DNA from: Malacoraja senta
Taxonomy: Eukaryota
Direction: 5' to 3'
Assembly: GCA_038087875.1 (NCBI GenBank)
Contig: CM075989.1
Span: forward strand, 18,106,001-18,170,000
Length of the DNA stretch: 64,000 nucleotides
Made by a program: the position numbers and the translations under genes. Positions 1-59,022 of the stretch are shown one piece after another (positions within the stretch are counted from its first letter, which is position 1; each line of letters opens with the position of its first letter). The notes beneath the pieces are model-generated. The model had not been told where the DNA came from. It worked only from the letters and a program-made list of their open reading frames with translations, and ran no database searches.

Positions 1-314
1 ATTCCCCCACGCCCCTGCCTCAAGTGTAATTGCTGCCAGACCCAAACCTCTGTGGCACATCTGGAGTTAACCAGGCAACACTTGTAAACATAGAAGAATC
101 ATTCATTCCAGATTTGCAACAGATTAGATAATGTTGTCCGCTGGACACGGTTTTATCCTTGCAATAAAACCACAATGGAGTAAACTTTGTCCCAAACATG
201 TTTGCTGTGTGACTGAGTTCATCTTTTATTGCGCACCTTGACACAGCATCACCATGCACCACTGTAACACCAACACGTTAGGGGCAATATTTTGCACATC
301 ATCGTCAACTCTAA

Positions 315-935
315 GTGTGTCGGAAGGAACTGCCGATGCTGGTTTACACTGAACGTGGACACAAAAACGCTGGAGTAATACAGCGTGGGTCAGGCAGCAT
401 CTCTGGAGAAGAGGAATAGGTGAGGTTTTGGGTTGAGGCCCTCCTTCAGACTGAGAGTCAGGGGAGAGGGAAACTAGAGGTAATAAAAGGTACAGAAACA
501 ATTCAGAGCTGGCACCGATGACCAAGGAAAGGTGGAGCCCACGATGGTGCATTGTTGGCTGCGGAAGAGGTGATAACGGAGGGTTACGAACAGTGAAACT
601 AGCAGGATGACTACGGTGGCGGAGGGACGGGGAGAGAGGGAATGCAATAATTATTTGAAATTAGAGAAATTAATATTAATATTAGCTTTGGCAGCTTGTA
701 ACCCAGCTATATGAATACTGATTTCGCTAATTTCAAGTAATTTCTCGAATTAGTCCGCATTTCCCCTGACTCCGTCCCATTGGTTATTGGTGCTGGGTCT
801 ATGCCTTTTCACACCTCTAGTTTCCCCCTCTCCTGACTCTGTCTGAAGTTGGGTCTCGGCCCGAAACGTCACCTATCCATTTTCTCCAGAGGTGCTCCCT
901 GACCTGCTGAGTTGCTCCAGCATTTGTGCCTGGCA
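315..935. mobile_element. Penelope-like element (PLE) 3' end present as an inverted pair
   Basis: 315-680 is the reverse orientation and 685-935 the forward orientation of the same repeat. Both arms contain the GIY-YIG C-terminal coding end (forward: GSL*PSYMNTDFANFK*) and a degenerate hammerhead-like motif (421-449 minus, 843-870 plus). Confidence 0.75.
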
Positions 936-1057
936 TCAATTCTAAAGCTGCCTCTAGCATCCCAGTGAGAAACAAAACATGGAGCAACTGTGTCTGTACT
1001 GCTCGAGCAACAACAATATGCTGGTGGAACTCAGCGGGTCCGGCAGCATCAGTGGAC

Positions 1058-8732: not shown

Positions 8733-9108
8733 TTCTGGCTGGCCAAACAGGGTGCATCGGTGCCCCTCCCAGTGGTTTACAGGAGGACATGACATATTTT
8801 GTCAATGTCCAATCCTGCTGTTAATTATTAACGAAAAAGATTTAGAGCTTTAAAAGTCCAAATCCAGTTGTTTTTTTCAGATCGTGCAAACAAAAGATTG
8901 TTTTCTCAGATCCATCGGACTGAAAACATGCTGACCAAGATTCCTGCATCTCCTTCCTCTGTTCTTCACTGACGATTCTGAGACTTTGCTTGTAAACGTC
9001 GAACCCTTTCCCGGATTTGTGTTCAGTTCCCCTGTCCCTCCACTGCCCGGCTTCCCGACACCAGCTTCTCGACTCCGCGGCAACATCCCGCCAATTGCAC
9101 CCCATATA

Positions 9109-9318
9109 TAGACATAAAGAACTGGAGTAACTCAGCGGGACAGGCAGCATCTCTGGAGAGGAATGGGTGACGTTTCAGGTCGAGACCCTCTGCAGACTGG
9201 TATCGACCCGAAACGTCACCTATTCCTTCTCTCCAGAGATGCTGCCTGTCCCGCTAAGTTACTCCAGCTTTTTGTGTCTATCTTCAGTTTAAACCAGCAT
9301 CTGCAGTTCCTTCCTACC
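9109..9318. mobile_element. PLE-derived mini-element, near-palindromic
   Basis: 9109-9198 is the reverse and 9203-9318 the forward orientation of the same repeat; the arms meet at the hammerhead-like motif. Confidence 0.8.
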
Positions 9319-9519
9319 CCATTCCGCCCCATTCTCCCCTTCTCCCCCACACTGCTCCACTCCCTTTCCATAATCCACTGCCCAAACCACAACTCATGCA
9401 CACAGTCCAGCACTGCGGAGGAGTGGAACCTGCTTTTGCATTTATTTGCACTGCTTTTGAGATGCAAGATTAATTTTTTTTATAGAGTCAATGCTTTCAT
9501 AATGTTCAAAAGTTAAACG

Positions 9520-9660: not shown

Positions 9661-10810
9661 AGAACGTACGAACATGAATTCATTAAATAAAATTGGCGGA
9701 TTATTCAATTACAGCAGGAAATCAATAACTTTATTGAAAATAAAAGCATCTCACATCTATTTAACCTCAGTCACCTCTGTGTCAGCATTTGACCAAAGCA
9801 AACAGATGCCAGGTTCAGGTGGAGAGTGTTTGGTGAGAAGATGGGGGTGCAGGTGTGCGTGTTCAGCTTGCTCAACACAAGCCAAGGCCACCAGACAAAG
9901 GCACTTCACGATTTGGATGTTAACTTTAGTTACTCGAGCCGGACAATACGACTAGTGGCGTGGAAGAAATAAATAGCTGGAGCCAGCTGTGCTGTTCATA
10001 GTCGGATGATCTTTGTGTGGCTGGGAATCATCATGGAACCTGTTTGTGCCTGAGGACAGGATGATGAATGAATTGGGCACACTATCCCATTGCACAGAAT
10101 GCTGCTGCAAGTTCACTTTAAGTCTATTAAAATGCTAATTTCTCTTGGTTAACAAAAAAGTCCAGAAATTACGTTGGAAAATAAACGCTGAGGGCATGCT
10201 GTGTCACTTTTCAGAAAACACTTTTTGTTGCTGCGTTTCCAAACTTTTTTGAGTTTATGCACAAAATGCGACCCGTTTGCCGACCGAAGTTTAATCGTTC
10301 CAGCGAAAACCGAAGTCTGCAGGCCAACATGTTTCGCTGGAATTAGAAACTCTCTGATCCATTCATGCTGAACCACAGAGTATTGAGCAGAGTACACACG
10401 GTCTCAGGAGGGGGTGGTGACGGGTCAACTGTACAAAAATAATGGTTGACTTAAATTAAACCTCCATTAAATAGGAGGTTGAATTTTCACAACTATCTAG
10501 GTGGAGTCTGCACATTAAAAGCTGTTAAATCTCAGTGCACGGGAAACGATGAGATATTTTAGGTTTCCCAACAAAACTCAGGCAACTGATAGTCCGGTAC
10601 CTCCCTTAATCCGGACCAAAATTACGGGAGCGCACTTAAAATTCCCTGGGCAACCACAGATGGCGTTGCGTGTGCCGCGCTCTTTCCAGACGTGTCCCTC
10701 TGCCCTGAAAGAGTTATTTGGTTCTATCGGCAGTTGTTGCCGATGATCCCTCTGGCTCAGCGGTCGAGTTGCTGCCTTTACAGCGCCACAGCCCTGGGTT
10801 CGATCCTGTT

Positions 10811-11430: not shown

Positions 11431-11749
11431 TACGTTTTAACACTCAGCAAGGTCCCAGTGAAAGTCATTTAATTTCCTTCGCTCCATAGATGCTGCTGCA
11501 CCCGCTGAGTTTCTCCAGCATTTTTGTGTACCCAGTGAAAGTCATGTGTCCAGCATAAGCACATTTAATATTTGTTTTATGTACGTTTCTAGCAGTCCAG
11601 GGTGCTTTAGAGATACACAAGGGGGGGTATAATTAGTGGGTCCGAGGTGTGTTGTATCAATATTATGTAATCTAAAATGATGCAGCAAAATTGATAATTC
11701 AGCAAGGTTCTGGAACCAAGGGTGCTGGAAAATGAAAAGGCTCTGTCTT

Positions 11750-12860: not shown

Positions 12861-14278
12861 CTAGTGTGAACAGGTGATCGATGGTTAGCATGGACTCGGC
12901 GAGTGGAACGGCCTGCTTCAATGCTGTATCTCTAAACTAAACTTAAAAGCAATTTGGTGCGTCTCACCTAGTTCCTGATGGACAGATCCATGCAGTGAGC
13001 TGCAACCAGGTTGCCCGATCCCTCTCCTGATCAGGTAGGACAAGACTAACCAACGGGGCGAGAATATAACCAACAGGAATACCCTGGGAAATAAATAATT
13101 TTATCTGCCTTATCTTCAATGCTAATGCTACACGACACACAACAACCCTGTCATTTGAAGGCTATATTAAATTTATTTTACCATTTCAACCAACACATGA
13201 AGGGATAAAATTTGGACAGTGTATACACGCACATGGTTATGGTTTATTAACAAATGTAATTTTACCAAATATAGATTACTGTAACTAATAAATCGCTTCA
13301 TATTGCCTCTCAACACTGAACAATTTGGGAGAGTACATTTTAACTGACCCTATCTTCCAGTCAGCAACATTTCCCAAGGATCGGATATTGTTCAGATCGT
13401 GCTGTCAAGTCAGTGTTGAATTAGTTTTGTTTGGAAGTTTAATTGATTGGAGCAGAGCTGCAATCCCGAGGAAATGGCTGGCTTTGAAGTCCCGAATGAA
13501 GCAAAACTCAGTCGACAAATCAAGAACGGCATCTCGGACGCCTGTTGTGCCCACTGTGAACAAGCCAACCCCGTAACAAATTAGAAGCCTTTAAAGGCAG
13601 ACTCGACGCAGATTCCCTTTTGCACAATTCAACAGAAGCATGCGCCAATTTTTAATTTACAAACTAACATCTCCTCTCTAACCAGAGCTCCCTTAAAACA
13701 TTTTAAATTCTCTCTTTAAAGATCAAATACCTGCACATACACTGTTACCCATAATTGATGAGCAGGTTAGAGCACAGGCGTCTTTCATCAATAGAGCTAG
13801 AGCTGCCTTTTGTGACAGGACAGTGTACCAGCACCTCTAATGTGACACGTATGTTTATTAATCGTGCTTGGCTAATGGATAATCTAAGCGAATGAAATAG
13901 AACGTTTGTTTAGACTTAGCTTTCAGTTATTATATTACAAGTTAAAAGTGCTCCCAATGTTCGGTGTACTGATGGAAGGAAAAAAATAAATTGGTGATAA
14001 ATGTAGCTAGATTTGTAATTGATAATGCTTACCAGCACATTTATGTTGAGATGAAAAGCCAACATGTTTCCTATCTGGGATTTATCAGAAAGCAAATCCC
14101 GATAAAATCTGTCCCTTTCCCTTCCTCCCTTGGCACACACACCTGCCCCACCACTCACTTTGCCAAATATTTTTAGAGACTTGCCTCCCTGTGAAACATT
14201 GGGTTGAAGTTTCAAACAGAATTGTGTTCACATTCTGAAACGGCATCAAAGCCATCTTGTTCAATGTCAATACATCGC

Positions 14279-14500
14279 GTGTAGGAAGGAACTGCAGATG
14301 CTGGTTTAAACCGTAGACACGAAAAGCTGGAGTGACTCAGCGGGACAGAAGAAGGAATGGGTGACGTTTTGGGTTGAGATCCTTCTTCAGACTGAAAGTC
14401 ATGGGAAAGGGAAACGAGAGATATAGACGGTCATGTAGAGAGATATAGAAAAATGAATCAAAGATAGTCAAAAATGTTATGATGATAAAGGAAACAGGCC
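14279..14500 (-). mobile_element. PLE-derived repeat with hammerhead-like motif (14363-14390)
   Basis: Starts GTGTAGGAAGGAACTGCAGATGCTGG; reverse of 56305-56567. Confidence 0.8.
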
Positions 14501-14523
14501 AATATATCATCATTCAATATCCT

Positions 14524-17304: not shown

Positions 17305-18455
17305 ATCAAGATGAAGGAGCTAGTTATTGACTTCAAGAAGCGAGGTGATGTACATGCCCCAATGGAACCAAAGTGGAGATGGTCGTGAGCTTCAGGTTCC
17401 ATGGCTTAAATACCACCAAACAATTTGTCCTGGATCAACCACATTGAAACTCGGGCCAAGAAACCACACCAACATCTCGACATATACCTCCTCAGAAGAC
17501 TAAGGAAGTTTGTCAAGTGTCTGATAACTCTCACCAACTTCTACAGATGTACCGTAGAAAACATCCCACCAGAGTGCATCACAATTTGGTTTGACATCAC
17601 CTCTGCTCAAGAACGCCAAAAAATACTGAGAGTTGAGAGTGTAGCCCAGTTTAGTTTATTGTCACGTGCACAGAGGTACAGTGAAAAGCTTCTGTTATGT
17701 GCTAACCAGTCAGCGGAAAGACAATATATGATTAGAATTGAGCCATTCACAGTGGATAGATAGATGCATGATAAGGGAAATGCAGGGTAAAGCCAGTAAA
17801 GTCCAACCAAAAATAGTCTTTGGTCACCAATGTGGTAGATAGTAGTTCAGATATTAGATAGTAGTTCATCACACAGGCCAGAGTCTCCACCATCAACACT
17901 ATCTACACTTCATGCAACCTTGGGAAAACAGTTAACATAATCAAGGATCTTTCACACCATGGTCATTCCCTCTTCTCCTCTCTCCCATCAGGTAGAGGAT
18001 ACAAAAGCTTGCAAGTGTTTACAGCTAGATTCAGGAACAGCTTCTTCCTTGCTGTCATCAGACTCCGGAACGGGCTTCCCATAAGTTACAGTGTAGTCCC
18101 GATCTTCCAACTTACCTCATTGCAGACCATGTGTTTAAGAAAGAACTGCAGATACTGGAAAAAGGTAGACAAATATGAAGGTAGACAAAAATGCTGGAGA
18201 AACTCAGCGGGTGAGGCCTCACCCACTGAGTTTCTCCAGCATTTCTGTCTACCTTCATTGCAGACCATGGGTTTGTTCCACTGTAACTGTAATGTAATAA
18301 CACTAGTTTCAGTGCTATTGTATTTTTCTCTTTGCACCTCCTGTAGTTGTGAAATGGCTTGATGTTACTCATGTATGGTATGATTTCATTGGACTGGATA
18401 GCACGCTAACAAAGCTTTTCATTGTATATCTCTACACACGACGATAATAAACCAA
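17305..18455 (+). mobile_element. Rex1/Babar-type LINE 3' portion with nested insertions (17648-17865, 18132-18254)
   Basis: SWINHIETRAKKPHQHLDIYLLRRLRKF...TLTNFYRCTVE and TARFRNSFFLAVIRL motifs; 3' UTR ends gataataaa. Confidence 0.8.
18132..18254. mobile_element. PLE-derived mini-element with inversion and 15-bp TSD
   Basis: TCATTGCAGACCATG at 18117-18131 and 18255-18269. Confidence 0.8.
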
Positions 18456-20847: not shown

Positions 20848-22129
20848 AACTAGGCCATTCGGCCCATCAAGTCTACTCCGCAATTCAATCATGGCTGATC
20901 TATCTCTCCCTCTCAATCCCATTCACTTGCCTTCTCCCCATAATCCCCGACACCTTTCCTCACAACCCTACGTTATTCGGTCGGTCCCAAATGATAGTCC
21001 AAAGGAGCGAGTCCTTTCCTCCGCCTCTAGAGGCAGCGAGTGGCAGAATCTTTACAAAAACAGATACAAATCATTGTTCAACACTTGAATCATTGAATTA
21101 CTGATTTTGAATGCAAACTCTCCCCATTGCCAGCTACCACTGTACATATCACATGAACTCAGTGATGCGAATGTGCATTTTCTACAATAAACCCACTCTT
21201 ATTTTCGCAGTCACGGTGCATGAAACAGTAGCTGAACATCGAGTGCATTTGGGTAGCGCACCGGCTAAGGTGTTACAGGGAAATGAGACCGGGGTTAAAC
21301 TGGCTCGGTGACCAGTTGCCAGATTCGCTATGCCTTACACTTTGTAAGTCAGACCCTGATTAAAAACTTTTAAAAAAGTAACTGAGTAAACAAGGAAGAC
21401 ATATTCTGAACTGGGTTCGTGGACACAATGCAAATCTCCCCTGCAAACACAGAGAAATCACCTGAGCACCGAGCATTATATTTCTGAAACTTCCCAGCTT
21501 AGTACTCATGTGCAATTTCGTTCCTGCGAGCACATTAAACTTTGCTAACCTGTTTAAAATGCAGCAACGTCGGGGCATGCCAAACTGCTGCCGCCGCCGC
21601 TGGCTGGAGTTGTGTTTTATTCCACACACCTCGTTGCCTTTAGCATCCAGGAGGATGTGAGCCAGGGCTTTCAATCCAGCGGTTCAGGTTGAGGGGATCC
21701 ATTGTTCGCTTGTTGTACAACTGCTTTCCACCAGCCTCTGCCGGGAGCAGCTCACCGCTGTTTGCCCCCCACCCAAGTTAGGCTGAAGCCTCTGCTCGCT
21801 GCTTCCTCCCCCCTCCTCCCCTTCCCCTTTTCCCCGAGACCTAGGTCCCTGTGGGTCCCAGCCAAAAGCTTGCTGATCTTCAGAGACCCAGCAGCGATCA
21901 GATGTCAACTCTGCCCCCCACCCTCCCCTCCACACTTGCCCACAGCACCCCCTCCTTAACACGCCAGCCCACCTCTGGAAACAACAAGCCTGTGGCTCCA
22001 GCTCACGTTAACTTTACTTTCCAGAAACTCCAAGGACAATTCATTCCGTGAAAGGCAGCGAGTAAAAATAGCACTTTCCCTGCTATTCCTGCACCCTCCC
22101 TGGTTCGCATTGCCTGCGTCCACTTTAGC

Positions 22130-22900
22130 CCCGCGTTCAGCCCGCTGCACTGATACTGATAGCCGGCAGCGTTGCACTTCATTCACCGGCTTGTATTTAT
22201 TTCGCATTGTGTGACTGCACACGGAAAGCAGCAAACAACAGCCCTACCTCACACGCTCGCCATAGGGCTCAGAAGTTGCGCTCTCGCCTGGCAAACTATC
22301 CGCTCCAACCAACTCTTGGCTCCTCCAAATCACGGGCACGCCGAGAGAGAAAAACAAACTGATCCACGGCGAATGGTGTAATCTGATCCGTCTCACTCAC
22401 ACCCCCCCGTGCATGGAGGCTGCAGCTGCCAATGAGGCGGCCGGGGCAGGCTCGGCCCACCTCCACGTCCCTCCTCCCCCCCCCTTCCTCTGTCCCTCCT
22501 CTCCCTTCCCCCTGCCTCCTTCACTCACCCCCCTCCTATCCTCTCCACCCTGCCTGCCTGCCTGCCCTCCCCCTCTCTCCCCTCCTCCCCTCCCAGCACC
22601 GGTGTAAATAAACCACGGCTAGTGCAGCGCCTGCCGTCCACCCCCCCCCCCCCCCCAGCTCTCGCTGACCCCCTTCCTGGCCCCCAAACCCCAGCAGACT
22701 CCCCCCGCAAGCCCTCGCACCGCGGTTAGTTAAAGGCACAGAGTACCGTTCGCTCGCTGCTGGCAACAAATACAAACTCCATCTAGTTCGGGCGAACCAC
22801 TGCGCTGCTCGGGATAATATTTACCTGAATGAATAACAACCCTGTTCCTACTTTCCCCCCCTCTCTCCTGAACGCGCTCGCCGCTGCCAACAACAGCAAT
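22130..22900 (-). promoter_or_regulatory. CpG/GC-rich putative promoter of an unidentified gene
   Basis: Repeat-free, CpG-enriched block with a CCAAT box (22429-22433), GC-box-like motifs and a long C-rich tract (22461-22710). Confidence 0.5.
22248..22410 (-). other. Putative first (5' UTR) exon
   Basis: Minus strand reads ...ATGGCGAGCGTGTGAG|GTAGGG, a splice-donor match with GT at 22247-22246. It lies just downstream of the CCAAT/GC-rich block. The 5' boundary is a guess. Confidence 0.35.
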
Positions 22901-23094
22901 TGCAACACTGGCTACTTCTCCAGCCAGCTCCTAAAACCATAAGACTTCATTCCCGCCGAGTTACCCCAGCGTTTTGTGTCAGATTTCTTTCTAACCTCAG
23001 CAACCAGTAAAGCCTTCGGTAATAACTCTTCCTTCCCGCCCATTTTGTGCTCAGATGGTCCCCAGCCCATCTTCATCCCCCTCCCCTAGAAACA

Positions 23095-23300
23095 CAGAAA
23101 ATAGCCTGTTTCCTTTATCATCGTCACTTTTTTGTGTTGCTTATCTTTCATTCATTTGCTCGACATCGCCGTTTCTATCTCTCGTTTCCCTCACCCCTGG
23201 CTCTCAGTCTGAAGAAGGGTCTCGACCCGAAACGTCACCCATTCCTTCTCTCCAGAGATGCTGCCTGTCCCCGCTGTTACTCCAGCTTTTTGTGTCTATC
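23095..23300 (+). mobile_element. PLE-derived repeat
   Basis: Matches 56305-56567. Confidence 0.8.
23209..23236 (+). ncRNA. Minimal hammerhead ribozyme motif (PLE type)
   Basis: CUGAAGA-A-GGGU(CUCG)ACCC-GAAA-CGUC: conserved core, helix II and palindromic ACGU in place of helix III. Confidence 0.65.
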
Positions 23301-23419
23301 CCAGTAAAAGAGTTAACTGTGGCATTGCTGACTACTGTTGGCTAACATGTGTGTGTTAGACCCGGGGTGAGGGGAAGAGCCGGTGCCAATGTGTAGAAAG
23401 GAACTACAGATTCTTCTGC

Positions 23420-23612
23420 AGTGGAATTCTTTGCCACAGAAGGCTGTGGAGGCAAAGGCAGTGGATATATCTAAGGCAGAGATAGATAGATAGATTCTTG
23501 ATTAGTCCGGGTGTCAAAGGTTATGGGGAGAAGGCAGGAGAACGAGGTTAGGGGGGAGAGATAGACCAGCCATGATTAGACTTGATGGGCCGAATGGCCA
23601 AATTCTACTCCG
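23420..23612 (+). mobile_element. CR1-type 3' fragment
   Basis: GTGGAATTCT..GCCACAGAAGGCTGTGGAGGC...GGGCCGAATGGCC. Confidence 0.8.
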
Positions 23613-23907
23613 TTCACTTATGATGCTGGTTTTACACCGAAGATAGAAACAAAATATTGGAGTAACTCAGCGGGACAAGCAGCATCTCTGGAGAAAATAC
23701 GTGGGTGACCTCTAATAATGGCGAGCAAAACACAAACTGCTGGAAGAACTCAATTCCTTCTCTCCCCAGAGATGCTGCCTGTCTCGCCGCCGGTGCCAAT
23801 GTCCCGGGCTGAGACGGCCAACCCCGCCGATCAGGTGTCCAGTTTCCCCGCGTCCCATGTGTCCAACAGACACACGGGCTAAGAGCCACTAGAGTTGGCA
23901 GCAACCT

Positions 23908-23941
23908 TCCCTCCCTCCCTCCCTCCCTCCCTCCCTCCCTC
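23908..23941. repeat. (CCCT)n microsatellite
   Basis: Direct reading. Confidence 0.9.
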
Positions 23942-24561
23942 GCTGGCAACGCTCTCCGTCATCATCGGTTCACAAGCCACGGATGGTTTTAAAATCTTTT
24001 TTTTTTCTCCCTCTCTCCAAATGGATTTCTAATGTTTTCACATATTTCACCATAGACTGCGCGCAAGGAGGCGAACTGAGGGCAGATTTTCTGTGACTGC
24101 CTGCCGCATAATGATTAATTTTAACTAAGTAATTAATTATAAAGTCAGCTGAAAAAAATGATGGTGTTAATTATTTAAAAGCAGCAGGTTCTACTGATGC
24201 AAATATTCCGTTCCAGGAGCGTGTCACCTTAATAGATGCCAGACGAATGAAAAATCAATACATTTTAATTGTGCCTCATATTTAAACCTTAATCAGCCTT
24301 GCCAAAAAAAACCCATAAGTTTCCCGAATTTGGTCAGTAATGATACCCCGTTTGGGACTGAAGGGGCGGGGCGAGTTGCATTTAGCTTAACTATTATTGA
24401 TTCTAGAATAATTTCAAGTCTATTGAATTCGCTTTTGGCGCAACGAGCAGCTTTCGGAGATCTGGGATGGGAACACTCCGTCGTGTGCTGGCTGTTGGCC
24501 AGTCCAAACACAAACCGCTGCAGGAACTCAGCGGGTCAGGCAGCATCCGTGGAGGAGATGG

Positions 24562-24798
24562 TCCAAGCGTAAACTAGGCGATGGTTTCGCCCTACACTTG
24601 CCCTCGGTCCGCCAAGGCCTGCTGGGTCTCCCGTTTGCTAGCCATTCCCATTCCCTTTCCCACACTGACCTTTCTGTCCAGGGACTCCTCCATTGCCAGA
24701 GTGAGGACACAAACAAACTGGAGGAACAGCTCCTCGTATTGCTCTTAGGTCGCTTACAACCCAATGGTATGATCACTGAATTCTCCAATTGCAAGTAA
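24562..24798 (+). mobile_element. Penelope-like element GIY-YIG endonuclease C-terminal fragment
   Basis: ...HSHSLSHTDLSVQGLLHCQSEDTNKLEEQLLVLLLGRLQPNGMITEFSNCK*. The PLE 3' region continues at ~25180-25550. Confidence 0.8.
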
Positions 24799-24974
24799 TA
24801 CCCTCCTCACCCCCCTCCTCACCTCCCAAGCATACACATTTCCCCTCTCATCTCTCACCACCCCACTCTCTCTGCTCTTTCCCCCTCCTCCATACACCCT
24901 TCTCCTACCCCCCAGGCCCAATTTTCTCTCTAATCCCCTCCCCTGTTCCCTTCCTCCCATATCCATTTTCATAA

Positions 24975-25175
24975 ATTATAGGATTAGAATTAGGCCATTT
25001 GGCCCATCGTCAGATCAGCCATTCACTCATGGCTGATCTATCTTTCTCTCTCAACCCCATTCTCCTGCCTTCTCCCCACAACCCCTGACACCCGTACTAA
25101 TCAAGAATCTATCAATTTCCACCTTAAAAATATCCATTGACTTAGCCTCCACAGCCTCCTGTGGCAATGAATTCC
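24975..25175 (-). mobile_element. CR1-type 3' fragment
   Basis: Reverse complement of the CR1 3' end. Confidence 0.8.
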
Positions 25176-25589
25176 TCCTGGAATATCCCTCCATCTGGCT
25201 CTGTATTTCATTCCTCCTCTTCTTTACTTAATGACAACCTTTTGTTTCCTTTTCACCTCTAGCCTTTGTCATTTATTGCATCCAGCTGCTAATCAGCCCT
25301 CTTCAACTGTATCCACCCATCGCATGCTAGGCTTTGTCCCACCTCCACCTGTCTTATCCAGCTTTCTCCCCACCCCCACCCACCCACCCACCCCCCAGTC
25401 CACCCCCACTCCCCCACTCCATCGGTCTAACGATGGGTCCCGGCCTGAAATGCCATCTGATCCATCCCCTCCGCAGATGCTGCCTAACCTGCTCATTTCC
25501 TATGGCATTTTGTTCAAGATTCCAGCGTCAGCAGTTCCTTGCGTCTCCATTGTTTTATGAGTTGCATAATTGCAATGAACAGTTATTAG

Positions 25590-27503: not shown

Positions 27504-27909
27504 CTCTTAATGTCCTGATACAGTGTCAGAATTTTGCCTAATGACTTCCACTCACTGCTCCCAGAGTGTGAATCCAATTTCAAGGCCAGCATACATCTAA
27601 AACGAGAAGGCAGAGATTCAGGAGGCTAATGGGGAAGCAGAAGGTAAATAGACACAAAGTGCTGGAGTAACTCAACCGGAAGCATTACAGCAGTGGAAAT
27701 AAGCAGGATGAGCAGTCAGAATGTATCTTGGCTTCAAACATGTCACCAAGGTTAGAAACACCCTGGTTTAGACTCAGATGGTTGAAAGCTGGTGAATTCC
27801 TGTACATTGGTGGAGCTGCATACTAAATCTCGTTGCACTGACGTGCAATGACAATAAAAGATATTATTATTAATTGGAGTCAATGGTTATTAATTGAATT
27901 GCAGAAAAT

Positions 27910-28170
27910 GACAGAGCGCTGGAGTAACTCAGCGGGTCAGGCAGCATCTCTGGAGAACATGGATAGGTGACGTTTCGGGTCGGAATCCTTCTTCAGACTG
28001 GTCTAAGGGGAGGAGTTCAGAGGGGATTCGAGGAAGAAGGTTTTCAGCCAGAAGTTAATTGGAAGCTTGAAGGTAGACAAAAGTGCTGGAGAAACTCAGC
28101 GGGTGCAGCAGCATCTATGGAGCGAAGGAAATAGGCAACATTTCGGGCCGAAACCCTCCTTCAGACTGAG
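27910..28170 (-). mobile_element. Two PLE-derived repeats from two subfamilies, each with a hammerhead-like motif
   Basis: Motifs at 27969-27996 and ~28137-28164. Confidence 0.75.
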
Positions 28171-28978
28171 AAGCTTGCCTGAGGGATGGACGATAAAATC
28201 TTTCACAACCTTTAAGAAGCATTGACAGGAGCACTTGAAAGATCAAGGAGTAGAAGGTTAGTGAAGGACTGCAGGCTTTCCCGGAGAAACTATGTGTTGC
28301 AGGCAGTATATCATGGAATGCTCCATGTTGGAATGGTTGTGGGCTCAGGCTCTGCTTCCAGAACCTGGGTACAGAATGCCACATGGCACTGCTGAAGAAA
28401 TGATTCCCAGAGAGAGCTGCATCCTATGACGTTAGATGACAAATGGATAGAAGATAAAGCACAAAAAGCTGGAGTAACTCAGCGGGTCAGTCCGCATCTC
28501 CGGAAAATAGGTGACATTTCGGGTTGAGACCCTTCTTCAGACCTATGGATAGGAAAGGTTTAGAGGGATGTGGGCCAAACATGGGCAAATGGGACTATCT
28601 TAGATGGGGCATCTCGGTAGAATGGGCAAGTTGGGCTGAAGGGTCTGTTTCTGTGCAGTTTGACACTATGACCAGGACAGCAATGCCTTCCTAGTGGGAT
28701 GTCAAAGATCCCTCGGCTTGCCCTTGAAGACAAGTTATTCCCTTTATGATATATCTGCACACTGTGGATGGCTCGATTGTAATCATGTATTGTCTTTCCG
28801 CTGGCTGGTTAGCACACAACAAAAGTTTTTCACTGTCACCTCAGTACACGAGAATAAAGGAAAGTAAAATAAAGTAAACAAGTCGGGAACACCCTGAACA
28901 TCCTGTCCCATCAACACCACTGGCCAACATTGTGTCTGAAGAAAGGTCTCGACCCGAAAAATCACCCATTCCTTCTCT

Positions 28979-28980
<2 letters not shown>

Positions 28981-29012
<32 letters not shown>

Positions 29013-29971
29013 TTTTTTTTTTTAATAATTTTTTAATAGAAGTACGGTAGATTACAGTAATGTACAACACGTATATATTAATACATTTTTTGTACCGCTT
29101 CACTTTTTTAAACTTTAAGAAAGAAAAAGAAAGAAGTAAGAAAAGTGAAGAAAGTGCGCAAAGGTTGTGAAGTGCAAAAGAGTGTTGGGAAAAGAAAGCC
29201 CCTTAGAAAAGAAGTTAGAGAAGGAAGTAAAGTTAGAAAATAGACCCTAGAAAAGAAAGAGAAAGAAAGAAGGAACAATCGCTCTATTATAACTCTTATA
29301 ACATACTTCATAGAGAAGGAACTACCAACCAAGTCTGTTTTTGTTTTACCTCCCATTACCAGGTCCAGATACCTTTTATTTATTTATTTGTTTTTCTAAA
29401 TTACTATTGCACCTCATGCTTGTAATAGGTCCAAAAACGTAGACCACGTCTTTTGAAATTGGTCTACTTTGCCTACTAGGAGGAATCTCATCTCTTCCAG
29501 ATGTAATGTTTCCAACATATTTGATGTCCACATTTTTATTGTTGGTGTGGGCGCATTTTTCCAGAATTTAAGTATAAGCTTTTTTCCCATTATTAGCCCA
29601 TAATTGAGTAAATTCTTCTGATACACGTTTAATTCAGGAATATCTTCCGATATTCCAAAAATAATCCATTCTGGTTTTGGTACCAGTTTTATTTTGATTA
29701 ATTTTGAAAAAATATCAAATATTTCAAACCAGAATTTTTGGATTTTTGTACAAAAAACAAAAGAATGTGCTATGGTAGCTTCTTGACATATACATTTATC
29801 ACAGATTGGTGAGACGTTAGGAAAGATTTTATTTAGTTTGGTTTTTGAATAATATAATCTATGTAATGTTTTAAATTGGATAAGCGTATGTCGTACGTTG
29901 ATCGAGCATTTATGCACCTGTAATAAATGATTATCCCAACTCTCTTTTGAAATTTTTATACCTAGATCTTG
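28981..29971 (-). mobile_element. 5'-truncated L1-clade LINE (ORF2 C-terminus, 3' UTR, poly(A))
   Basis: Open frame ending at 29414: FKTLHRLYY...CDKC...HSFVFC (CCHC knuckle)...ILKFWK. Poly(T) run 28981-29022; TSD TTCTCTCC at 28973-28980 and 29972-29979; inserted in a PLE repeat. Confidence 0.9.
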
Positions 29972-30424
29972 TTCTCTCCTGAGATGCTGTCTTTCCCGCT
30001 GAGTTACTCCAGCTTTTTGTGTCTGTCTTCGGTTTAAACCAGCATCTGCAGTTCCTTCCCTGCACATCACACATCTGTTTGCGGGAGATAGCCGTGCTTA
30101 AATTCAATGCCCTTTCTCCCACATTAGAACAGTATAAACCATTACTGAAAGCATGTTATATAAATGTTATATAAACACGTCTTTAATGCATTGGACACGA
30201 GTGCAGAACTGAAGGGAGTCCATCGGAGTGGGAAAGTGGCACAGAAATTGTTCAAAGCTCGGATGGGCAGGTCAGTTAGGAAAGAAAGAATACTTTATTG
30301 TCACTAGTTTCAAGTCACAATGAAACTCTACGCTTGCATACCCAAGGTATGCAAATAGTCGCTACATAAGGGCACTGACAAAGTTACAAAGTATACACAG
30401 TATCCACGCCAGGTTCCCCTTTGT

Positions 30425-39580: not shown

Positions 39581-40467
39581 ACTGATGACCCTAACTCCCG
39601 GCTTCAAAGGCTCCAAGCTCAAAATCCCTTCCATAAAACTCTCCTTCCTCTTTTCAGACGCCCATCACAGGCATCGGTGACCAAGCTTTTGCCCATCAGC
39701 CTTAATATATCTTTCCATTGTTGTGTTAAACTGTGTTTGATAATGCTCTTATGAAGCTATGTTGAGGTGTGTTAGAAACACAAGTAGCCATTGTTGTTAT
39801 GAATGTATCAAGGACAACGTTTCAATCTCTTGAAATCCAAACTGCATTGAGTTAATCTTCAGCTTTCCAGAGCACACAATTAGATTAAACAAGTCTAGTT
39901 CAATGGGGGGGAATTGATTCTTTCAGCGATGCTCCGCTCCGCAGCTTAAGGTGCTGTTAACTTCTGTGTTTGCTTGGATTCTACCTCAGGACAGTCACCT
40001 TTGCAGAATTCTCTTCCACTTTAAAACCACCAGTCAGGAAGCCAGTCCTTGCTGTGAGATGGAGCTCAACAGGATCAATAGTTCAATGGTGGTTCAATGG
40101 TACTTTTATTGTCACTCGTAAAAGACAGAGAAATTATTTTCTTACATACAGTCCGGTAAAGTATTGCCAAGCCCAAGCAAAGAGTACAGAAATAGTCCAC
40201 TGAGCCCACTTGCAAGAGGCATAAGGCTTTGACGCCATTTTCAATCACGCTGCCAATGTCAGCAACCAGGACATCAAACACTATTTAACGCTGGGTTCCG
40301 AACAAATATTTTGAAAATTCTTCTCCCTCCACAGATGCTGCCTGACCCGCTGAGATCCTCCAGCACTTGGTCTATTGCTCCAGATTCCAGCGTTTGCAGT
40401 CTGTTGTGTCTCAATTCTCTCCATTTAATTTGGTTTTAAGAGCCAAGGTGATGTCATTAAATACATT

Positions 40468-40670
40468 GTATAGGAAGGAACTGCAGATGCTGGTTTACAA
40501 CACAGATAAAGACACAAAAAGTTGGAGTAGCTCAGCTGGTCAGGCAGCATCTCTGGAGAAACGGAATAGGTGATGTTTTGGATCGAGACCCTTCATCAGA
40601 CTTCAGCCTGTCTGAAGAAGGGTCTCAACCCGAAATGTGACCTTTTCCTTTTCTCCAGAGATACAGCCTG
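40468..40670. mobile_element. PLE-derived mini-element with inverted hammerhead-like motifs
   Basis: Minus motif ~40572-40599, plus motif ~40612-40640. Confidence 0.75.
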
Positions 40671-41754
40671 AAGTAGTCTTAAATCTGGAGATAGTCGAAC
40701 CCGCAACACCTTCCCAATTCTCTTTCACTTCCCAGAGATCCCATTATATTTTGGGATTGTTTAATAATTTTCTAATAGAAAGGCATTAAAGTAAGGCTGC
40801 TTTCAACACGAGAGACTGAAATGATCACACAAGTTCAAAAGCTTTCAGACAATCGGTGGTTAAATACTAATGCTGCGATTGATGCTATTCCCTGTAGACT
40901 GAAAATAATAAATTACCGTCATGCCAGTCAAGAGACACTGAGCCCCTTTGTGTTGGGAACCCTTTGATCCCCTCCCTGGCTGCCCCTACACAGATATAAG
41001 AAAGGCTTTTTCTAACAACAAACTGCGAGTCAGCAGGTCCAGCAAAGACAGCAAGAAGTGAAGGGGCCTGAATTGCGAGTCTTGATACAGCGGCTTTCTC
41101 CCATCCAGGTGGAAGTCAACTTTAAAAAACAAAATAGCGTAATTAATCAGATCACCAATCCCATATTGTGGAGAGCATAACTTATTTTTTGGCACTCGAA
41201 GCTTCGCAGGAAAAATCCTTTTTAGAAAACATGGGCTCAGTCAGGCACCATTGGCCAGACATAGTTTGGGTTTTATCATCGAACCTTGGTGTCCTTGTAC
41301 GCAAGTCTGTTCAGTTCGGGTTTCAAGGCTGCGCCCTCAATCTGTTACAGTGTCGCAGGCAGGGGCGAGGGTGAATGGACAATCAGATGCAAACGGCTTA
41401 AATCATTTACAGGACCAACACAATGCAACAAAACCTCAGGACAGAACAGACCCTGCCTGAATCACCTTCACAGAGCGTGTTCTCTGTGCTGGGACATTTT
41501 CTATGGCAGTACTATATATATATACTGCTCATACTCAGACACAAACACACACACACATATATACTGGAAGGAACTGCAGATGCTGATTTAAACCGAAGAT
41601 AGACACAAAAAGCTGGAATAACTCAGCAGGACATAAATATACTTACACATACATACATATATTTTGATATATATATATATATATACTTATACAAACACAT
41701 ATATATATACACTTACATACACAAACGCACGCGCGCACATATATATATCTTTAT

Positions 41755-42590: not shown

Positions 42591-42594
42591 ATAC

Positions 42595-42930
42595 TGATTT
42601 ATACCGAAGATAGACTCGAAATGCTGGAGTAACTCAGCGGGTCAGGTGGCATCTCTGGAGAAAAAGAATAGGTGACGTTTCTGGGTCCGAACCCTTCTTC
42701 AGACTGAAAGATTAAGAGATGGTGGGGGAGAACTGGAGGCAAGAATAGACCGGCCTTGTTTTGTTCTGGCCTTTTCTCACTTCCACTCCCCTCCCCCTCC
42801 CCCCCTCCCCTCCAACCCACCTCTATCTTTCAGTCTGAAGAAGGGTTCCAACCTGAAGTGTCACCTATTCCTTTTCTCCAGAGATGCTGACTGACCAGCT
42901 GAGTTACTCCAGCATTTTGTGTCTGTCTTC
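42595..42930. mobile_element. PLE-derived element as an inverted pair
   Basis: Minus arm 42595-42745, plus arm 42760-42930. Confidence 0.75.
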
Positions 42931-43138
42931 ATTCCAAATATGTTTATTTTTAAACATAGGTATGTTATGTTGCAATTGTTCAGGGTGTGGGCGAGGCCTT
43001 ATCTGGAATACTGCTTACAGTATTGGTCCCCTTATCTAAAAAAGATATAGTAAGGTTGGAGGCAGCCAATGCCTGGAGCGAGGGAGTTGTCTGTCCAAGA
43101 GAGACGAAACATTTGGGTTTGTTTAGTATATATATTTT

Positions 43139-45671: not shown

Positions 45672-45905
45672 TTCTGCACCCCAGCTGCTTGAACATTGAC
45701 CTCCAATTTCCGTTAGCCCTTGCTGTCTCCTCCCCTTCTCAGCTCTCCCTCAGCCCTCCTCTTCCTTTCTTCTTCCCTTCCCCCCCCCCCCCCCCACCCT
45801 GCATCAGTCTGAAGAAGGGTTTCGGCCCGAAACGTTGCCTATCTCCTTCGCTCCATAGATGCTGCCTCACCCGCTGAGTTTCTCCAGCACTTTTGTCTAC
45901 CTTCT
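45672..45905 (+). mobile_element. PLE 3' end with hammerhead-like motif (45809-45836)
   Basis: GIY-YIG tail LHPSCLNID followed by CUGAAGAAGGGU(UUCG)GCCCGAAACGUU. Confidence 0.8.
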
Positions 45906-47055: not shown

Positions 47056-48130
47056 ACAGGCTCACCACCGATTTTCCGGCAACTGATGGTGCGGCACCTC
47101 CTTAAATCCGGAACAAATTACTAGAGCGCACTTGATATTCCCTGGGCGGCCACAGATGGCGCTGCGTGTGGGGCGCACTCATTCGGGCCTTGTCCCACCG
47201 TCCCGATAGACTTCGCAGTGCTTGGCGATCGTTTCGCCGAACACCTCCGGTTGGTCCGCAATAACCAACCTGAGCTCCTGGTGGCTCAGCACTTCAACTC
47301 CCCCTCCCATTCCATATCTGACCTCTCTGTCCTGGGTCTCCTCCATGGCCACAGCGAGCAACACCGGAAATTGGAGGAAATGCACCTCATATTCCGCTTG
47401 GGCAGTCTACATCCTGGGGGCTTGAACATTGAATTCTCCCAATTCTGCTAGCCCTTGCTGTCCCCTCCCCTTCATCAGCCCTCTGGTTGTCTCCTCCCCT
47501 CCCCCAGCCCTCGGGCTCCTCCTCCGCCTTTTTCCTTTTTTCCTTTCTTCCCCCCACCCCCTATCAGTCTGAAGAAGGGTTTCTGCCCGAAACGTTGCCT
47601 GTTTCCTTCGCTCCATAGATGCTGCTGCACCCGCTGAGTTTCTCCAGCATTTCTGTGTCCCAATAGACTTATTTGTTTACATCTGTTTTCATCGATTCCT
47701 AGGTTTTGTGCAAGTCTTAGCTTATTTTGCTAACATTTGACCCCAGTCATGGATTCGAAGCAAGACAGTCATTGTGTCATAAGTTCATAGGTTGGCGGAG
47801 CAAAATGAGGCCATTTGGCCCATCGATTCTACTCTGCAATTCAATCACAGCTGATCCTGACACTGTTACTTATCAAGAATCTATCAATCTCCGGGGATAA
47901 TTGCCAAGCGTATTTAATTCACATTTAATACTTGTTTTACATAGGTTTCTAGCAGTCCAGGGTTCTTTAGAGACACGGGAGGGGTATAATTAGTGGGTCA
48001 GAGATATGTTGTGCTATTATTACTGTTATTATGTGACCTCCGTTGGTCCATAAAAATGGATAATCTGTCAAGGTTCTGGAACCAAGGAGTGCCGGAACAT
48101 CGCTGGTGGTCGGTGATCGGTGGTCCGGTA
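47056..48130. mobile_element. TcMar/Tigger-like non-autonomous transposon, copy B, with nested PLE and CR1 pieces
   Basis: Imperfect inverted ends (TA-CAGG..CCACCGATTTTCCGGCA / TGCCGGAACATCGCTGGTGG..CCGG-TA); homologous to copy A at 10575-11745. Confidence 0.6.
47218..47660 (+). mobile_element. Penelope-like element 3' end: GIY-YIG C-terminus plus hammerhead-bearing terminal repeat
   Basis: LGDRFAEHLR...VAQHFNSPSHSISDLSVLGL...RKLEEMHLIFRLGSLHPGGLNIEF; motif at 47569-47596. Confidence 0.85.
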
Positions 48131-51532: not shown

Positions 51533-52780
51533 GTATCTCTTTAAACATTTCTGTCTTGCGAACAATTCAGGTGACGCACATAGCCCTGTTGTTGGCACAA
51601 GCAACTGCAGATGCTGGTTTACTCAAAAAAACGACCCAACTGCTGGTTTAACTCAGCGGGTCAGGCAGCATCTCTGGAGAACATGGATAGGCGACGTTTC
51701 GGGTTGGGAACCCTCTTTGGAACTCTGTTGTAAATGGGGGCGGCCTGCATTCAGTAGAATGGATGGCCATGAAGCCTTCCTCCAGTTACTGAGAAGATGC
51801 ATGCTTAAAGCGAAACAATATGGCATGTAACAGTTCCCCATTGATTTCCACGGGTAAACTGTTTGACAGCCCAGGCACGTGTGTGATGTCCACTGCCAAG
51901 CTGCAACATCGCTGTCAGGCAAAATGATCGCTCTCGTCCCTTAACCTTGAGCTCCACCGATAACAAACGAGTACAGTACGATATAATCCCCCTCCAACAC
52001 AAGGTAGGCACATCATTTACATGTCGATCTTGAAGGAAGACAAGGGAGCTGCTTCACTAATCTGTGTGAAATGGCAGAAATATTCTTCTTCGGTTTTGAA
52101 AACATTACAGTGACACGGGATGGAGGGTTGTCTCATTTACTCAGTAAACCTAGTGTTGACAAGTTTTGTCAAATATAGAATTCTAAGTAAATGATAATGG
52201 CTGAGCTCTGCTTTTAACTGAGGGTTGTATAGTAAGAATAGTCATGGATTTAGCAGGCTGCAATTGTACAAACAACTGGTGGTTCTCATGCGAATAAGAG
52301 GCATTATTCAAAGGCAAGGAAGATTTAAACCCGGTCATTCACGGGCACACAAAACAATGTAAGTTGTCCAATCAACGACTCAAATCAGCGACAGCTTTCG
52401 AGCTGTTTGCTGGGTACTTTGCAACAACCCTCGACGTGATGCTCCATATCTGCATATTAAAATGTGTCATGAGAAATTGGTGTTGTCGCTTCTGTTGGCA
52501 TCTCTGATCGAAACACTTTCCAAGTTTGAAAGCGCGCTGACAGATCATTCTTTCTCGCGGGCATCAGCCCCACTCTGAAGGACATTACTGTTGGGAAACT
52601 GGAATTTCACAATTTTGTTGAAATGTTCTTCCGGTGGTTAATGCATGGAAACAGAAGTGGGAGAGGAGTCTACCTACATCTGTGTCAGCCACGATTTTAA
52701 GGAGTGACAGCTATAAATCAAACAACACCCGAAGAACATATAGAAAATTACTAGACACGATGAATACAATTTCACTAATG

Positions 52781-53153
52781 TGCAGGGAGGAACTGCAGAT
52801 GCTGGTTTAAACCGAAGATAGGCACAAAAGGCTGGACTGAAGAAGGGTCTCGACCCGAAACGTCACCTATGCCTTTTCTCCAGAGATGCTGTCTGACCCG
52901 CTGAATTAAGGGCCTGTCCCACTTGGGCGTCACTTGCGCGTCATTTACGCGACATCATTTACGCGTCACGACGCACGACGCACGCATGGTGTGCATTATG
53001 CGCGCATGGCGCGTGGTGAGAGGTGGTGGCGTGGGCAGTGACGCGCGGCGCCCCAGGATTTTGGGATTCAAAAAATCTTCGCTCGCCACCAGCGTGACGC
53101 GCAAATGACGCCCAAGTGGGACAGGCCCTTTACTCCAGCTTTTTGTGTTCACC
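52781..53153. mobile_element. PLE-derived mini-element with inversion, 16-bp TSD and nested MITE
   Basis: TACAATTTCACTAATG 52765-52780 vs TACAATTCTACTAATG 53154-53169; intact hammerhead motif at 52837-52864. Confidence 0.8.
52909..53129. mobile_element. PIF/Harbinger-type MITE
   Basis: About 35-bp TIRs AGGGCCTGTCCCACTTGGGCGTCA..; TTA TSD at 52906-52908 and 53130-53132. Confidence 0.85.
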
Positions 53154-55417: not shown

Positions 55418-56304
55418 GTCAATGTTACAATTTCTGCACCAAATTGCACATCATTCAAGAAAATGGGCATATTTATTTCCACTGCTCTCACTTTATTGCA
55501 CCTGCCTTGAACTTGGTACTATGTGGCAAGCAATAAAATGGTCATTTATGGAAGCTCTGTTCAGGAGCTACTGGAGGAGTGTCTAGTTCCTCAAACACAC
55601 TCCGTTTTACACAGCCGCCCTTAAATCAGTGACTTTCTCTGAGCAGGGCTGTCAATGAAACGCCTCACACGCAAGTTCAGGGCAAGAAACTGGAAAATTG
55701 TATGAATATTTTATCAAGCACATCAAAAGCCAATAAATTACTTTCGATATGTGGTCACTGTTTTATGGGCGAGGGTGGCAGCCAATTTGTAAATCACCAG
55801 CTCCCACAAACAGAAAAGAGATACGTGACTCGTTCATCTATTAAGGGAGAGATAATTAAATGTTCGTAAGAAGTGAGAAAATAGCTGTGTTGGTCTTCGA
55901 CTGGCACTCGGGCACAACAGTGGCGGTACTTGGTATCAGAGAAGGTAACAGCACAGCTGCCTGCCATTCGGCCCTTCAAGCTCATCCTAGCCCATAATTG
56001 ATATGTGCCATCCTATTTACAAGCCTGCGATCCACCGCCTTGCAGGTTACAATGCTCATTTCGGTGCGTTCGAAGTGCGACATCATCTCCATCATCCTTT
56101 CAGACTGTCACTGCTCCTTGGGTGAAGTATAATTTTCCTCAACTCCCTTCTAATCCTTTCACCAAGTAACTTAAAGCTTTGTCTGCCAGTCGTCAAACGC
56201 CTTCCAAGGAAACACTTCACTCTGTCTGCAGCACTCACAAGTTTATATCTCAGTTTATATCAAGTAAATATCTCAGAGTTCCAAGAAAAACAACCCCCAT
56301 GCTT

Positions 56305-56567
56305 TTCCCCCAACAAACAGCTAACAATGGCCTGTTTCCTTTATCATCGCTACTTTTTTGCATATCTTTCATTCATTGTTCTTTATCTCTCCACATCATC
56401 GTCTATATCTCTGGTTTCCCTTATCCCTAACCAGTCTGAAGAAGGGTCTTGACCCGAAACGTCACCCATTCCTTCTCTCCAGAGATGCTGCCTGTCCCGC
56501 TGAGTTACTCCAGCATTTTGTGTCTATCTCCGGTTTTAAACCAGCATCTGCCGTTCCTTCCTACACA
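56305..56567 (+). mobile_element. PLE-derived repeat with intact hammerhead motif (56436-56463)
   Basis: CUGAAGAAGGGU(CUUG)ACCCGAAACGUC; ends ..CCAGCATCTGCCGTTCCTTCCTACAC. Confidence 0.85.
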
Positions 56568-57044
56568 GCGCATTAGCTAGGCAGCCTTCCCATCTTGTCG
56601 TATTCCTTATCTCACTGGAAGCCGCAGATAATTCCTGGGGGTGATGTTATCACCACATATGAGATACTGGATCATATTGGAGTTGTAGTATCTCACAATC
56701 TCTTCACAGCTGTATAATCACTGATACAAAACAGTGCAATTTGATTCCAAAGCCTGAGGAATCTACAGGCTTCAACCATGTTTGGCGTGGACATGGCAAT
56801 TTTTTTTTTAAGTGCCATGAAATTTTTCGCCACTGATCTTAACTTCAGCTCACTATCATGTTCTTGAGAAACAATCATTTTAACACAGGCAGGTCCACAA
56901 CCCTGTGGAGGTTATTTGCAGCACTTAGAAAACTATTATTCTTTGCCACCAATCATTCAGGAATCATATTGCAAGTAGACAGGCCCTCGAGCTGTGCGGG
57001 CGACAGGATTATGAAACATCTGTTGCATTGTTAACGGTCAACTA

Positions 57045-58597: not shown

Positions 58598-59022
58598 ACT
58601 TACAGCGCAAGAGACTCGTGTTCGATCCTGACCACGGGTGCTGTCTGTATGGAGTTTGTACGTTCTCCCCGTGACCTGCATGGGTTTTCTCCAGGATCTC
58701 CAGTTTCCTCCCACACTCCAAAGATGTACAGGTTTGTAGGCTAAGTGTAGGAAAGAACTGCAGATGCTGGTTTAAACTGGAGAAGGGTCTTGACCTGAAA
58801 CATCACCTGTTCCTTTTCTCCAGAGATGCTGTCAGACCCGCTGAGTTACTCCAGCCTTTCATGTCTATCTTCAGGTTTGTAGGCTAATTGGCTTCGGTAA
58901 AATTGTAAATTGTTCCTAGTGTGTGTAGGGTAGTGCTAGTGTACGGGATGATCGCTGGGTCGGCCCGGACTCGGTGGGCCAAAGGGCCTGTTTCTGCGCT
59001 GTATCTCTAAACTAAACTAAAC
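58598..59022 (+). mobile_element. HE1-type V-SINE split by a PLE mini-element
   Basis: The consensus resumes after 58887. Confidence 0.85.
58745..58871. mobile_element. 127-bp PLE-derived mini-element with inversion and perfect 16-bp TSD
   Basis: CAGGTTTGTAGGCTAA at 58729-58744 and 58872-58887. Confidence 0.85.

Follow-up and report, generated by a model that had tools for sequence, protein, structure and literature searches.

Short decaying copies of a minimal hammerhead motif in a skate genome, read as pseudo-LTR ends of Neptune-like Penelope elements

A stretch of 64,000 nucleotides from the skate Malacoraja senta (contig CM075989.1, positions 18,106,001 to 18,170,000; hereafter, the window) contains many short and decaying copies of the known minimal self-cutting RNA motif that characterizes the ends of Penelope-type elements. 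We consider it very probable that these copies are the 3' pseudo-LTR (pLTR) ends of several subfamilies of Neptune-like Penelope-like elements (PLEs), and this confidence extends to the mechanistic account given below as a whole. The finding is mostly ordinary in kind: Penelope pseudo-LTRs with minimal hammerheads, most often found as truncated single copies, are an established and widespread class, described for metazoan PLEs by Cervera and de la Pena (2014; PMC4209133) and by Lunse et al. as summarized in a review (PMC6765202). Two features are unusual, namely how densely the copies occur and how many of them start right at the motif. A literature search, with most subscription papers and Repbase/Dfam outside its range, found no paper on hammerheads of skate or shark PLEs, and two of the three supplement files of PMC4209133 hold no shark or skate entry.

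The 28-nt hammerhead pattern matches the window exactly at 23209, 45809, 52837, 56436 and 47569. A preceding sequence-only reading had called the first four copies intact, and each is indeed exact at its coordinate; 47569, which had been entered as a diverged copy, is a fifth exact match. The label "intact" is justified for the core and fails elsewhere, since helix I of copy 52837 comprises 0 bp and copies 45809 and 47569 carry GUU instead of GUC. All 20 positions previously proposed as diverged copies were recovered with an offset of at most 2 nt. When up to three mismatches were allowed, 20 motif matches were found in the window versus 0 in 100 dinucleotide shuffles, and a fuzzy search returned 31 hits at up to six edits, 27 of which lie at five edits or fewer, a level never reached in five simulated controls. 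Profile searches with a unit of ~97/135 nt identified 50 fragments (24 plus, 26 minus) that cover 4,441 nt, or 6.9% of the window, and the same profile gave 0 fragments in the reversed window. Judged by eye from abutting model coordinates, four fragment pairs each represent one copy that a later insertion has interrupted (1468/999, 28933/29972, 34163/33967 and 44380/44955). The counts given here rest on 29 hammerhead-anchored copies, leaving out the partial-motif fragments 18915, 34163 and 40290. The very high copy number claimed before is supported, and the copies are mostly short and ORF-less, as had also been stated. Of the 21 Rfam matches with E of 5 or better, none was to a hammerhead family, and a scan of metagenome and viral contigs with the exact pattern yielded 0 loci. 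As a separate observation, 41% of the window matches itself, mostly through a ~300-nt, putatively SINE-like repeat and putative CR1-like 3' ends.

The focal copy (plus strand) illustrates the layout of the unit. Its upstream part, 23100..23208, is a pyrimidine-rich PLE 3'UTR/pLTR that ends in TCAGT, the 5' strand of a 2-bp helix I; this end is Inr-like and also resembles a 3' splice site. The same upstream sequence is common to copies 56436 and 14363, and by eye it is homologous to the endonuclease-linked UTR of copy 422. The minimal type-I hammerhead follows at 23209..23236 as an exact pattern match, with CUGAAGA at 23209-15, an extra A at 23216, stem II at 23217-28, GAAA at 23229-32, the palindromic ACGU at 23232-35 and C17 at 23236, which places the predicted cut at 23236/23237. 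A conserved downstream body, 23237..23300, stops at the first of two 3'-end sites (~+92), without a tail.

Among the 29 copies, the core CUGANGA...GAAA...UH is kept with its spacing in eight, six of which also retain ACGU; the column table of all copies confirms the palindromic ACGU helix III that had been described. A palindromic loop-less helix III, the extra base before stem II and G10.1-C11.1 are all present, as in the consensus of minimal hammerheads. Shared with the published class (PMC4209133; PMC6765202) are the type I topology, the absence of loop 3, the palindromic 15.2-16.2, the extra base between 9 and 10.1, G10.1-C11.1, the pLTR location and the occurrence of mostly single motifs from truncated PLEs. 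The two differ in helix II, which has 4 bp here versus 7-8 bp in Schistosoma, and in helix I, with 2 bp here versus the typical 4-5 bp, although Drosophila virilis also has 2 bp. Stem II is 92.6% paired; much of the variation in its loop (CUUG, CUCA), which the sequence-only reading had set against a kept stem, is CpG decay. Helix I had been described as weak, and it indeed reaches no more than 2 bp in 27 of 29 copies (a few zeros reflect indel offsets), the exceptions being 3 bp at 25427 and 6 bp at 28513. The latter copy (28450..28544, minus strand), the only one with a 6-bp helix I, draws this helix from the flank and has a broken helix III (AUGU).

Taking four helices together, stem covariation did not exceed shuffles (149 of 500 reached the score), and hammerhead pairs changed on both sides amounted to 2 of 20, a value equalled in 194 of 500 shuffles; the latter test has little power with closely related, decayed copies. 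RNAalifold predicted 0 pairs from 27 rows, and seven of eight single-copy folds were no better than shuffles. For three wild-type copies, folding models predict that the purine-rich core pairs with downstream pyrimidines, with probabilities of ~0 for stem II and helix I and of at most 0.02 for helix III in a dimer, in models that ignore tertiary and protein effects. A GCUGAG/CUCCAGC hairpin recurs among copies, with no compensatory change. Self-cleavage by the hammerhead is probably low. Published minimal hammerheads cleave weakly even as dimers (PMC4209133), and one of nine Xenopus dimers cleaved (Li et al., bioRxiv 2026.07.22.740005).

The unit lies behind the stop codon of a GIY-YIG endonuclease and a pyrimidine-rich UTR. 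Endonuclease codons are reached in 5 of the 29 motif-anchored copies, which supports the link between the minimal type-I hammerhead and PLEs drawn by the sequence-only reading. The clearest case is a 5'-truncated PLE at 47221..47660 (plus strand), which consists of the GIY-YIG C-terminus at 47221-47448, where coding sequence had been claimed, a short UTR, the hammerhead at 47569-47596 (GUU) and the body. Leucoraja proteins match its frame at 83% (76 aa) and 71% identity, and a Rhincodon RT+GIY-YIG protein does so at 61%, values that by themselves point to a probable skate-like host; the fragment alone has no Pfam match. A second 5'-truncated PLE at 45672..45904 (plus strand; 76% identical to 47420-47656) carries a UTR, the hammerhead at 45809-45836 (GUU) and the body; the GIY-YIG sequence claimed ahead of it is present as the last ~14 C-terminal codons, which are frameshifted and were not reported by tblastn. 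Translation also placed terminal endonuclease codons directly upstream of copies 422 and 843, as for 45809. The remnants at 422 and 843 are absent from the earlier description, as is a further endonuclease remnant detected by tblastn at 24562-24790, within an older PLE end at 24500..25548 (plus strand). Here, an inverted body piece (24500-24560) precedes the remnant, and a UTR interrupted by another repeat (~24961-25175) is followed by a decayed hammerhead at 25427 and a tail.

No RT or full-length PLE is present in the 64-kb window, so that a 76-aa fragment is the basis on which both the driving element and its clade were inferred. A loose pattern for the CX2-5CxxC linker matched 121 of 124 related proteins; the linker is absent from the window. 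This linker is reported to mark Neptune and Nematis (PMC8557442), and the PLEs found in vertebrates are, according to Li et al. (bioRxiv 2026.07.22.740005), Neptune and Poseidon; together, these points make Neptune the likely clade, as judged from protein relatives. As described by Craig et al. (2021; PMC8557442), Neptune elements share with the copies here a C-terminal GIY-YIG, 5' truncation, inverted partners and a 30-40-bp tail; their linker is represented by the loose pattern in relatives, and neither linker nor RT occurs in the window. They differ in that microsatellite targeting is not apparent here and that 5' ends accumulate at the hammerhead. In a zebra-shark protein with RT and endonuclease, the reading frame continues into the UTR, and its last part is, by eye, a peptide like the translated motif, a match that blastp did not report; this resemblance suggests that a second elasmobranch carries a hammerhead in the corresponding position. 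Separately, shark and ray gene models that bear host-gene names (RTP3-like, DIPK1C and CHID1 isoforms) contain PLE RT or endonuclease sequence, which reflects either exonisation or annotation error.

The structure of the insertions matches known hallmarks of PLEs (PMC8557442; PMC11167929), which are often truncated and have a tail of 30-40 bp as well as inverted partners that lack their 5' part; both the tail and the inverted partners are present here. The longest copy of the main subfamily (56298..56567, plus strand) comprises UTR, hammerhead (56436-56463), body to 56529 and a 38-nt tail (56530-56567), and another main-subfamily copy (14276..14501, minus strand) has UTR and tail and a mutated G12. 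Head-to-head pairs are common. One, at 314..954, unites a minus copy (hammerhead 422-449, with tail) and a plus copy (843-870), both of which continue upstream as far as the terminal endonuclease codons and the stop (~650-741). Other pairs are joined at the hammerhead (9095..9321), begin 2-3 nt ahead of C3 in both copies (40465..40671) or have a UTR in both (42591..42932), and a head-to-head insertion at 18117..18269 consists of two body pieces without a hammerhead inside a 15-bp target duplication. Two short plus-strand insertions combine an inverted tail piece with a copy starting at C3: at 52778..53148, the piece 52778-52836 is fused directly to the copy at 52837, the body of which is split by a later inverted-repeat element, and at 58729..58887, a 16-bp target duplication encloses a tail piece joined to the copy at 58777. 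Exact 14-16-bp duplications flank three insertions (11454-11545, by eye; 18117-18269; 58729-58887), and flush duplications of at least 10 bp occur at only 3 of 41 clusters (five hits in all; control rate 5.7%).

Other repeats were also noticed in the window. Long terminal inverted repeats with TTA/TAA duplications delimit 52908-53133, inside copy 52837, and ~37029-37517, inside a SINE-like repeat; both are presumably Harbinger/PIF-like MITEs. A minus-strand LINE 3' end with a poly(A) tail at 28981-29971 (zf-RVT E 0.00075, below cut-off) is inserted in copy 28936 and separates it from 29972-30060. At 62518-62872 lies a 24-nt minisatellite of 15 copies; its unit is similar to the CTCCAGC..TGTGT segment of the PLE body, from which it may derive. 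Finally, the two-copy repeats 10578-10715 / 47075-47213 and 11560-11733 / 47920-48100 are found near B-subfamily PLE pieces.

Copy ends fall into distinct classes. At the 5' side, assigned partly by eye, 11 of the 29 copies extend into the pyrimidine-rich UTR (5 of them to endonuclease codons), 12 start at -7 to 0 from C3, 5 start at +3 to +11 and 1 is ambiguous. Within 8 nt at the hammerhead start, 12 of 38 ends pile up (scan p 0.0008); split copies were counted separately, and merging them would make the pile-up stronger. The 3' ends of the 50 fragments are bimodal, 22 of them falling at +80 to +104 and 13 at +130 to +132, and define two sites ~38 nt apart (+85 to +97; +130 to +132), the interval between which is the PLE "tail". 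An 8-bp complement between 56483-56490 and the tail at ~56543-56550 encloses the first site and shows no covariation; it is a candidate stem-loop for the RT start. Contigs of four sequencing runs aligned to 56270-56620 (352,104; 328,301; 248,064; 28,218 records) displayed the same boundaries. Among the best six loose ends per run, beyond which there are 1,689 further ends, 5' ends occur at 56432-56434 and 3' ends at 56521-56536, with 56529 first in all four runs, and contig joints recur at 56567. Loose letters at 56433-56434 agree only to 0.31-0.32, as for unrelated flanks; those at 56432 are pyrimidine-rich and include UTRs of other subfamilies. A loose end at 56476 was rejected as a true boundary, the consensus there being sequence of another subfamily. 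The cut site 56463/64 is absent among the best six loose ends per run. By eye, eight ends lie just past the cut site (+25 to +38), two of them at split points of interrupted copies. This number is close to the uniform expectation of ~5; a minor class of cleaved templates may be represented among the ends. Anolis Poseidon (Frangieh et al., 2024; PMC11167929) likewise has two adjacent 3'-end sites ~90-130 nt past the hammerhead and no ends at the cut site; it differs in belonging to another clade and in that its ORF starts in stem II, whereas for the unit here an internal ORF start was rejected, as none of its translations matched the 124 related proteins at E below 0.1.

An alternative is that the main subfamily forms a separate, non-autonomous and SINE-like mini-PLE with its own master loci, mobilized by PLE protein in trans. 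Such a unit would be ~260 nt long if it extended from ~-125 as far as the tail, or 97-135 nt if it began where the hammerhead does. The main subfamily is the commonest, none of its 11 copies reaches coding sequence, its three longest copies share sequence only to ~-110 to -128, and non-autonomous PLE derivatives are known, as in Chlamys (PMC8557442; also Li et al., bioRxiv 2026.07.22.740005). However, the boundary at the hammerhead start recurs in at least three subfamilies, one of which includes endonuclease-linked copies (28137 versus 47569), and is therefore not the accident of one founder; in addition, the UTR is homologous to the endonuclease-linked UTR, three copies cannot fix the 5' end, and a tRNA-like head is lacking. 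A Pol III SINE head (tRNA, 5S or 7SL) was sought and gave 0 tRNA genes and no such Rfam match, a search that decayed heads could escape. We regard a mini-PLE as possible, though doubtful, for the main subfamily, and it is compatible with the preferred reading for the others. The SINE-like character proposed by the sequence-only reading may apply to the main subfamily alone. The remaining ones run into endonuclease codons, so that short PLE insertions are the better reading for most copies.

The same reading had also suggested a retrozyme-like family, for which the arrangement of the copies gives no support. In such a scheme, tandem monomers of non-LTR retrozymes would be cut by dimeric hammerheads, circularised and reinserted. 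The palindromic helix III would suit a dimer, retrozymes derive from PLE pLTRs and are reported for one chondrichthyan (Li et al., 2026, bioRxiv), and contigs contain joints of the type "goes back 94-136"; these joints were not counted as tandems for want of known spacers. Yet no tandem array of the unit occurs among 30 TRF rows, same-strand spacings are irregular (168 nt to 14 kb), and DNA ends are not piled at the cut site (+28). The closest same-strand hammerheads, 28137 and 27969 (27902..28168, minus strand), belong to two subfamilies, lie 168 nt apart and form the only near-dimer in the window, with a helix III pairing probability of ~0. Moreover, the fold probability of the hammerhead is near zero in three wild-type copies, and helix I has at most 2 bp in 27 of 29 copies, unlike canonical retrozyme hammerheads (PMC7229834). 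Known non-LTR retrozymes (Cervera and de la Pena, 2020, PMC7229834; Li et al., 2026) resemble the units here in being type-I, non-coding and PLE-related, but are tandem with mostly canonical hammerheads, whereas the copies here are dispersed or head-to-head with PLE-type ends. A retrozyme origin is accordingly very improbable, and we retain the reading as PLE ends.

Inserted copies are dead and decay neutrally. Non-CpG mismatches affect 15 of 282 core positions (5.3%) versus 53 of 939 in the non-diagnostic body (5.6%; Fisher p=1.0). The unfiltered body rate, 149 of 1360 (11%), is twice that of the core and largely reflects subfamily differences, and restriction to non-diagnostic columns lowers it. 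The catalytic G12, a CpG position, is changed in 5 of 29 copies (body CpG control, 7 of 54), and G>A at G12 accounts for 13.8/16.4/15.1/13.4% of contig depth in the four runs (X1/X3/X5/X23), similar to 12.2/14.2/13.6/10.2% at a control body CpG in the same runs. Except for G12, no core column has a variant in more than two copies, as many body columns do, which fits selection acting in the source lineage only. Better conservation of the core than of the flanks, as expected earlier, is therefore seen between source lineages or subfamilies and not within copies.

This decay also weighs against the idea that the host has exapted some of the copies as ribozymes that cut pre-mRNA, for instance the focal copy next to a promoter-like, GC-rich region. 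The focal core is intact and abuts a GC-rich stretch (GC 0.54 at 22001-24000), and sheer density places many copies in transcripts; against this stand the neutral decay, the absence of strand bias (15 plus / 14 minus), the lack of a host exon and the fact that the focal copy is a lone one without a dimer partner and folds otherwise. A comparison of 297 of 325 candidate ORFs with Pfam gave four weak hits, none at the curated cut-off; the other 28 ORFs were low-complexity or repeat-derived and were omitted or had been scanned earlier. We saw no sign of a host function, and exaptation appears extremely improbable. The region at ~21300-23100, which the focal copy adjoins, is repeat-poor, GC-rich and promoter- or first-exon-like, with no Pfam match. 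A run search with 21000-23400 found no RNA run among those listed; run X23 is putatively RNA, and its contigs cannot show RNA ends.

For PLE ends, the observations suggest the following mechanism. The PLE protein would nick both target strands, and RT would begin internally on the RNA, past the ribozyme, using one or the other of two sites separated by ~38 nt. This would produce the two 3' ends, as Anolis PLE work suggests, in which the tail was mapped to internal RT start sites (PMC11167929). Head-to-head pieces lie within one target duplication, and priming from both strands could account for them. Most cDNAs would end early, many at the first hammerhead base, where the pile-up is observed. 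The template would be uncleaved RNA, and the ribozyme, if working at all, would do so in tandem source transcripts, either slowly as a dimer or assisted by protein; for the Anolis PLE, the main template is reported to be uncleaved RNA and the ribozyme to need protein (same source).

Four causes of the 5' pile-up were weighed. Our tentative first choice is that RT runs off at a 5' end of the RNA located in the Inr-like TCAGT; stalling of RT at the pyrimidine tract is possible, a 3' splice site appears unlikely and an alignment artefact improbable. The letters of TCAGTCT double as a polypyrimidine-CAG acceptor. TCAGTCT is also compatible with initiator consensuses, and a DPE-like GTCA is located at +29 to +32 from its A. 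Copies 44383, 52837 and 58777 start at C3 itself, two of them directly behind an inverted piece; no constant upstream exon was seen on short copies, and no strong donor was found by eye in the 130-nt UTR. As a start at C3 itself is incompatible with splicing and a constant exon is lacking, run-off and RT stalling were ranked above splicing. In D. virilis Penelope (Schostak et al., 2008; PMC2377424), a 3'-splice-site-like sequence also stands right before helix I, but transcription starts 121 nt upstream (46-nt exon plus 75-nt intron ending at helix I). The joint reading, that transcription of elasmobranch Neptune elements starts at an initiator TCAGTC (A at -3) overlapping helix I, with internal priming by the PLE protein at the tail sites near the mRNA 5' end and run-off at the cap, is speculative and on balance rather doubtful.

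If 29 copies per 64 kb were typical, the genome would contain 4.5x10^5 motifs per Gb. The ratio of motif depth to single-copy depth ranges from 5x10^4 to 1.6x10^6 and varies with k-mer overcounting; contig depth is no copy number, so the abundance, roughly ~10^5-10^6 motifs per genome, is an order of magnitude only. Published counts of minimal hammerheads are ~4,000 in coelacanth and ~9,000 in Xenopus (PMC4209133), both with a strict descriptor, and up to 120,000 in axolotl (PMC7229834). The density here is far above the coelacanth and Xenopus values, but those counts used the strict descriptor.

Skate-like genomes may thus hold ~10^5-10^6 motifs that form a natural population data set for PLE insertion. 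Their copy ends indicate, in vivo and for a second PLE clade, where RT starts internally, as has so far been shown in vitro for one lizard element, and the accumulation of 5' ends at the hammerhead could lead to the Neptune promoter or to a short-cDNA pathway. Should the initiator reading be true, "strong-stop-like" cDNAs of 97-135 nt would integrate by the hundred thousand and give rise to SINE-sized repeats without a SINE master. The DPE-like GTCA would then fall within helix III and the cut site, and, with its truncated helix I, the ribozyme at the 5' end would stay inactive unless completed by protein or by an upstream partner.
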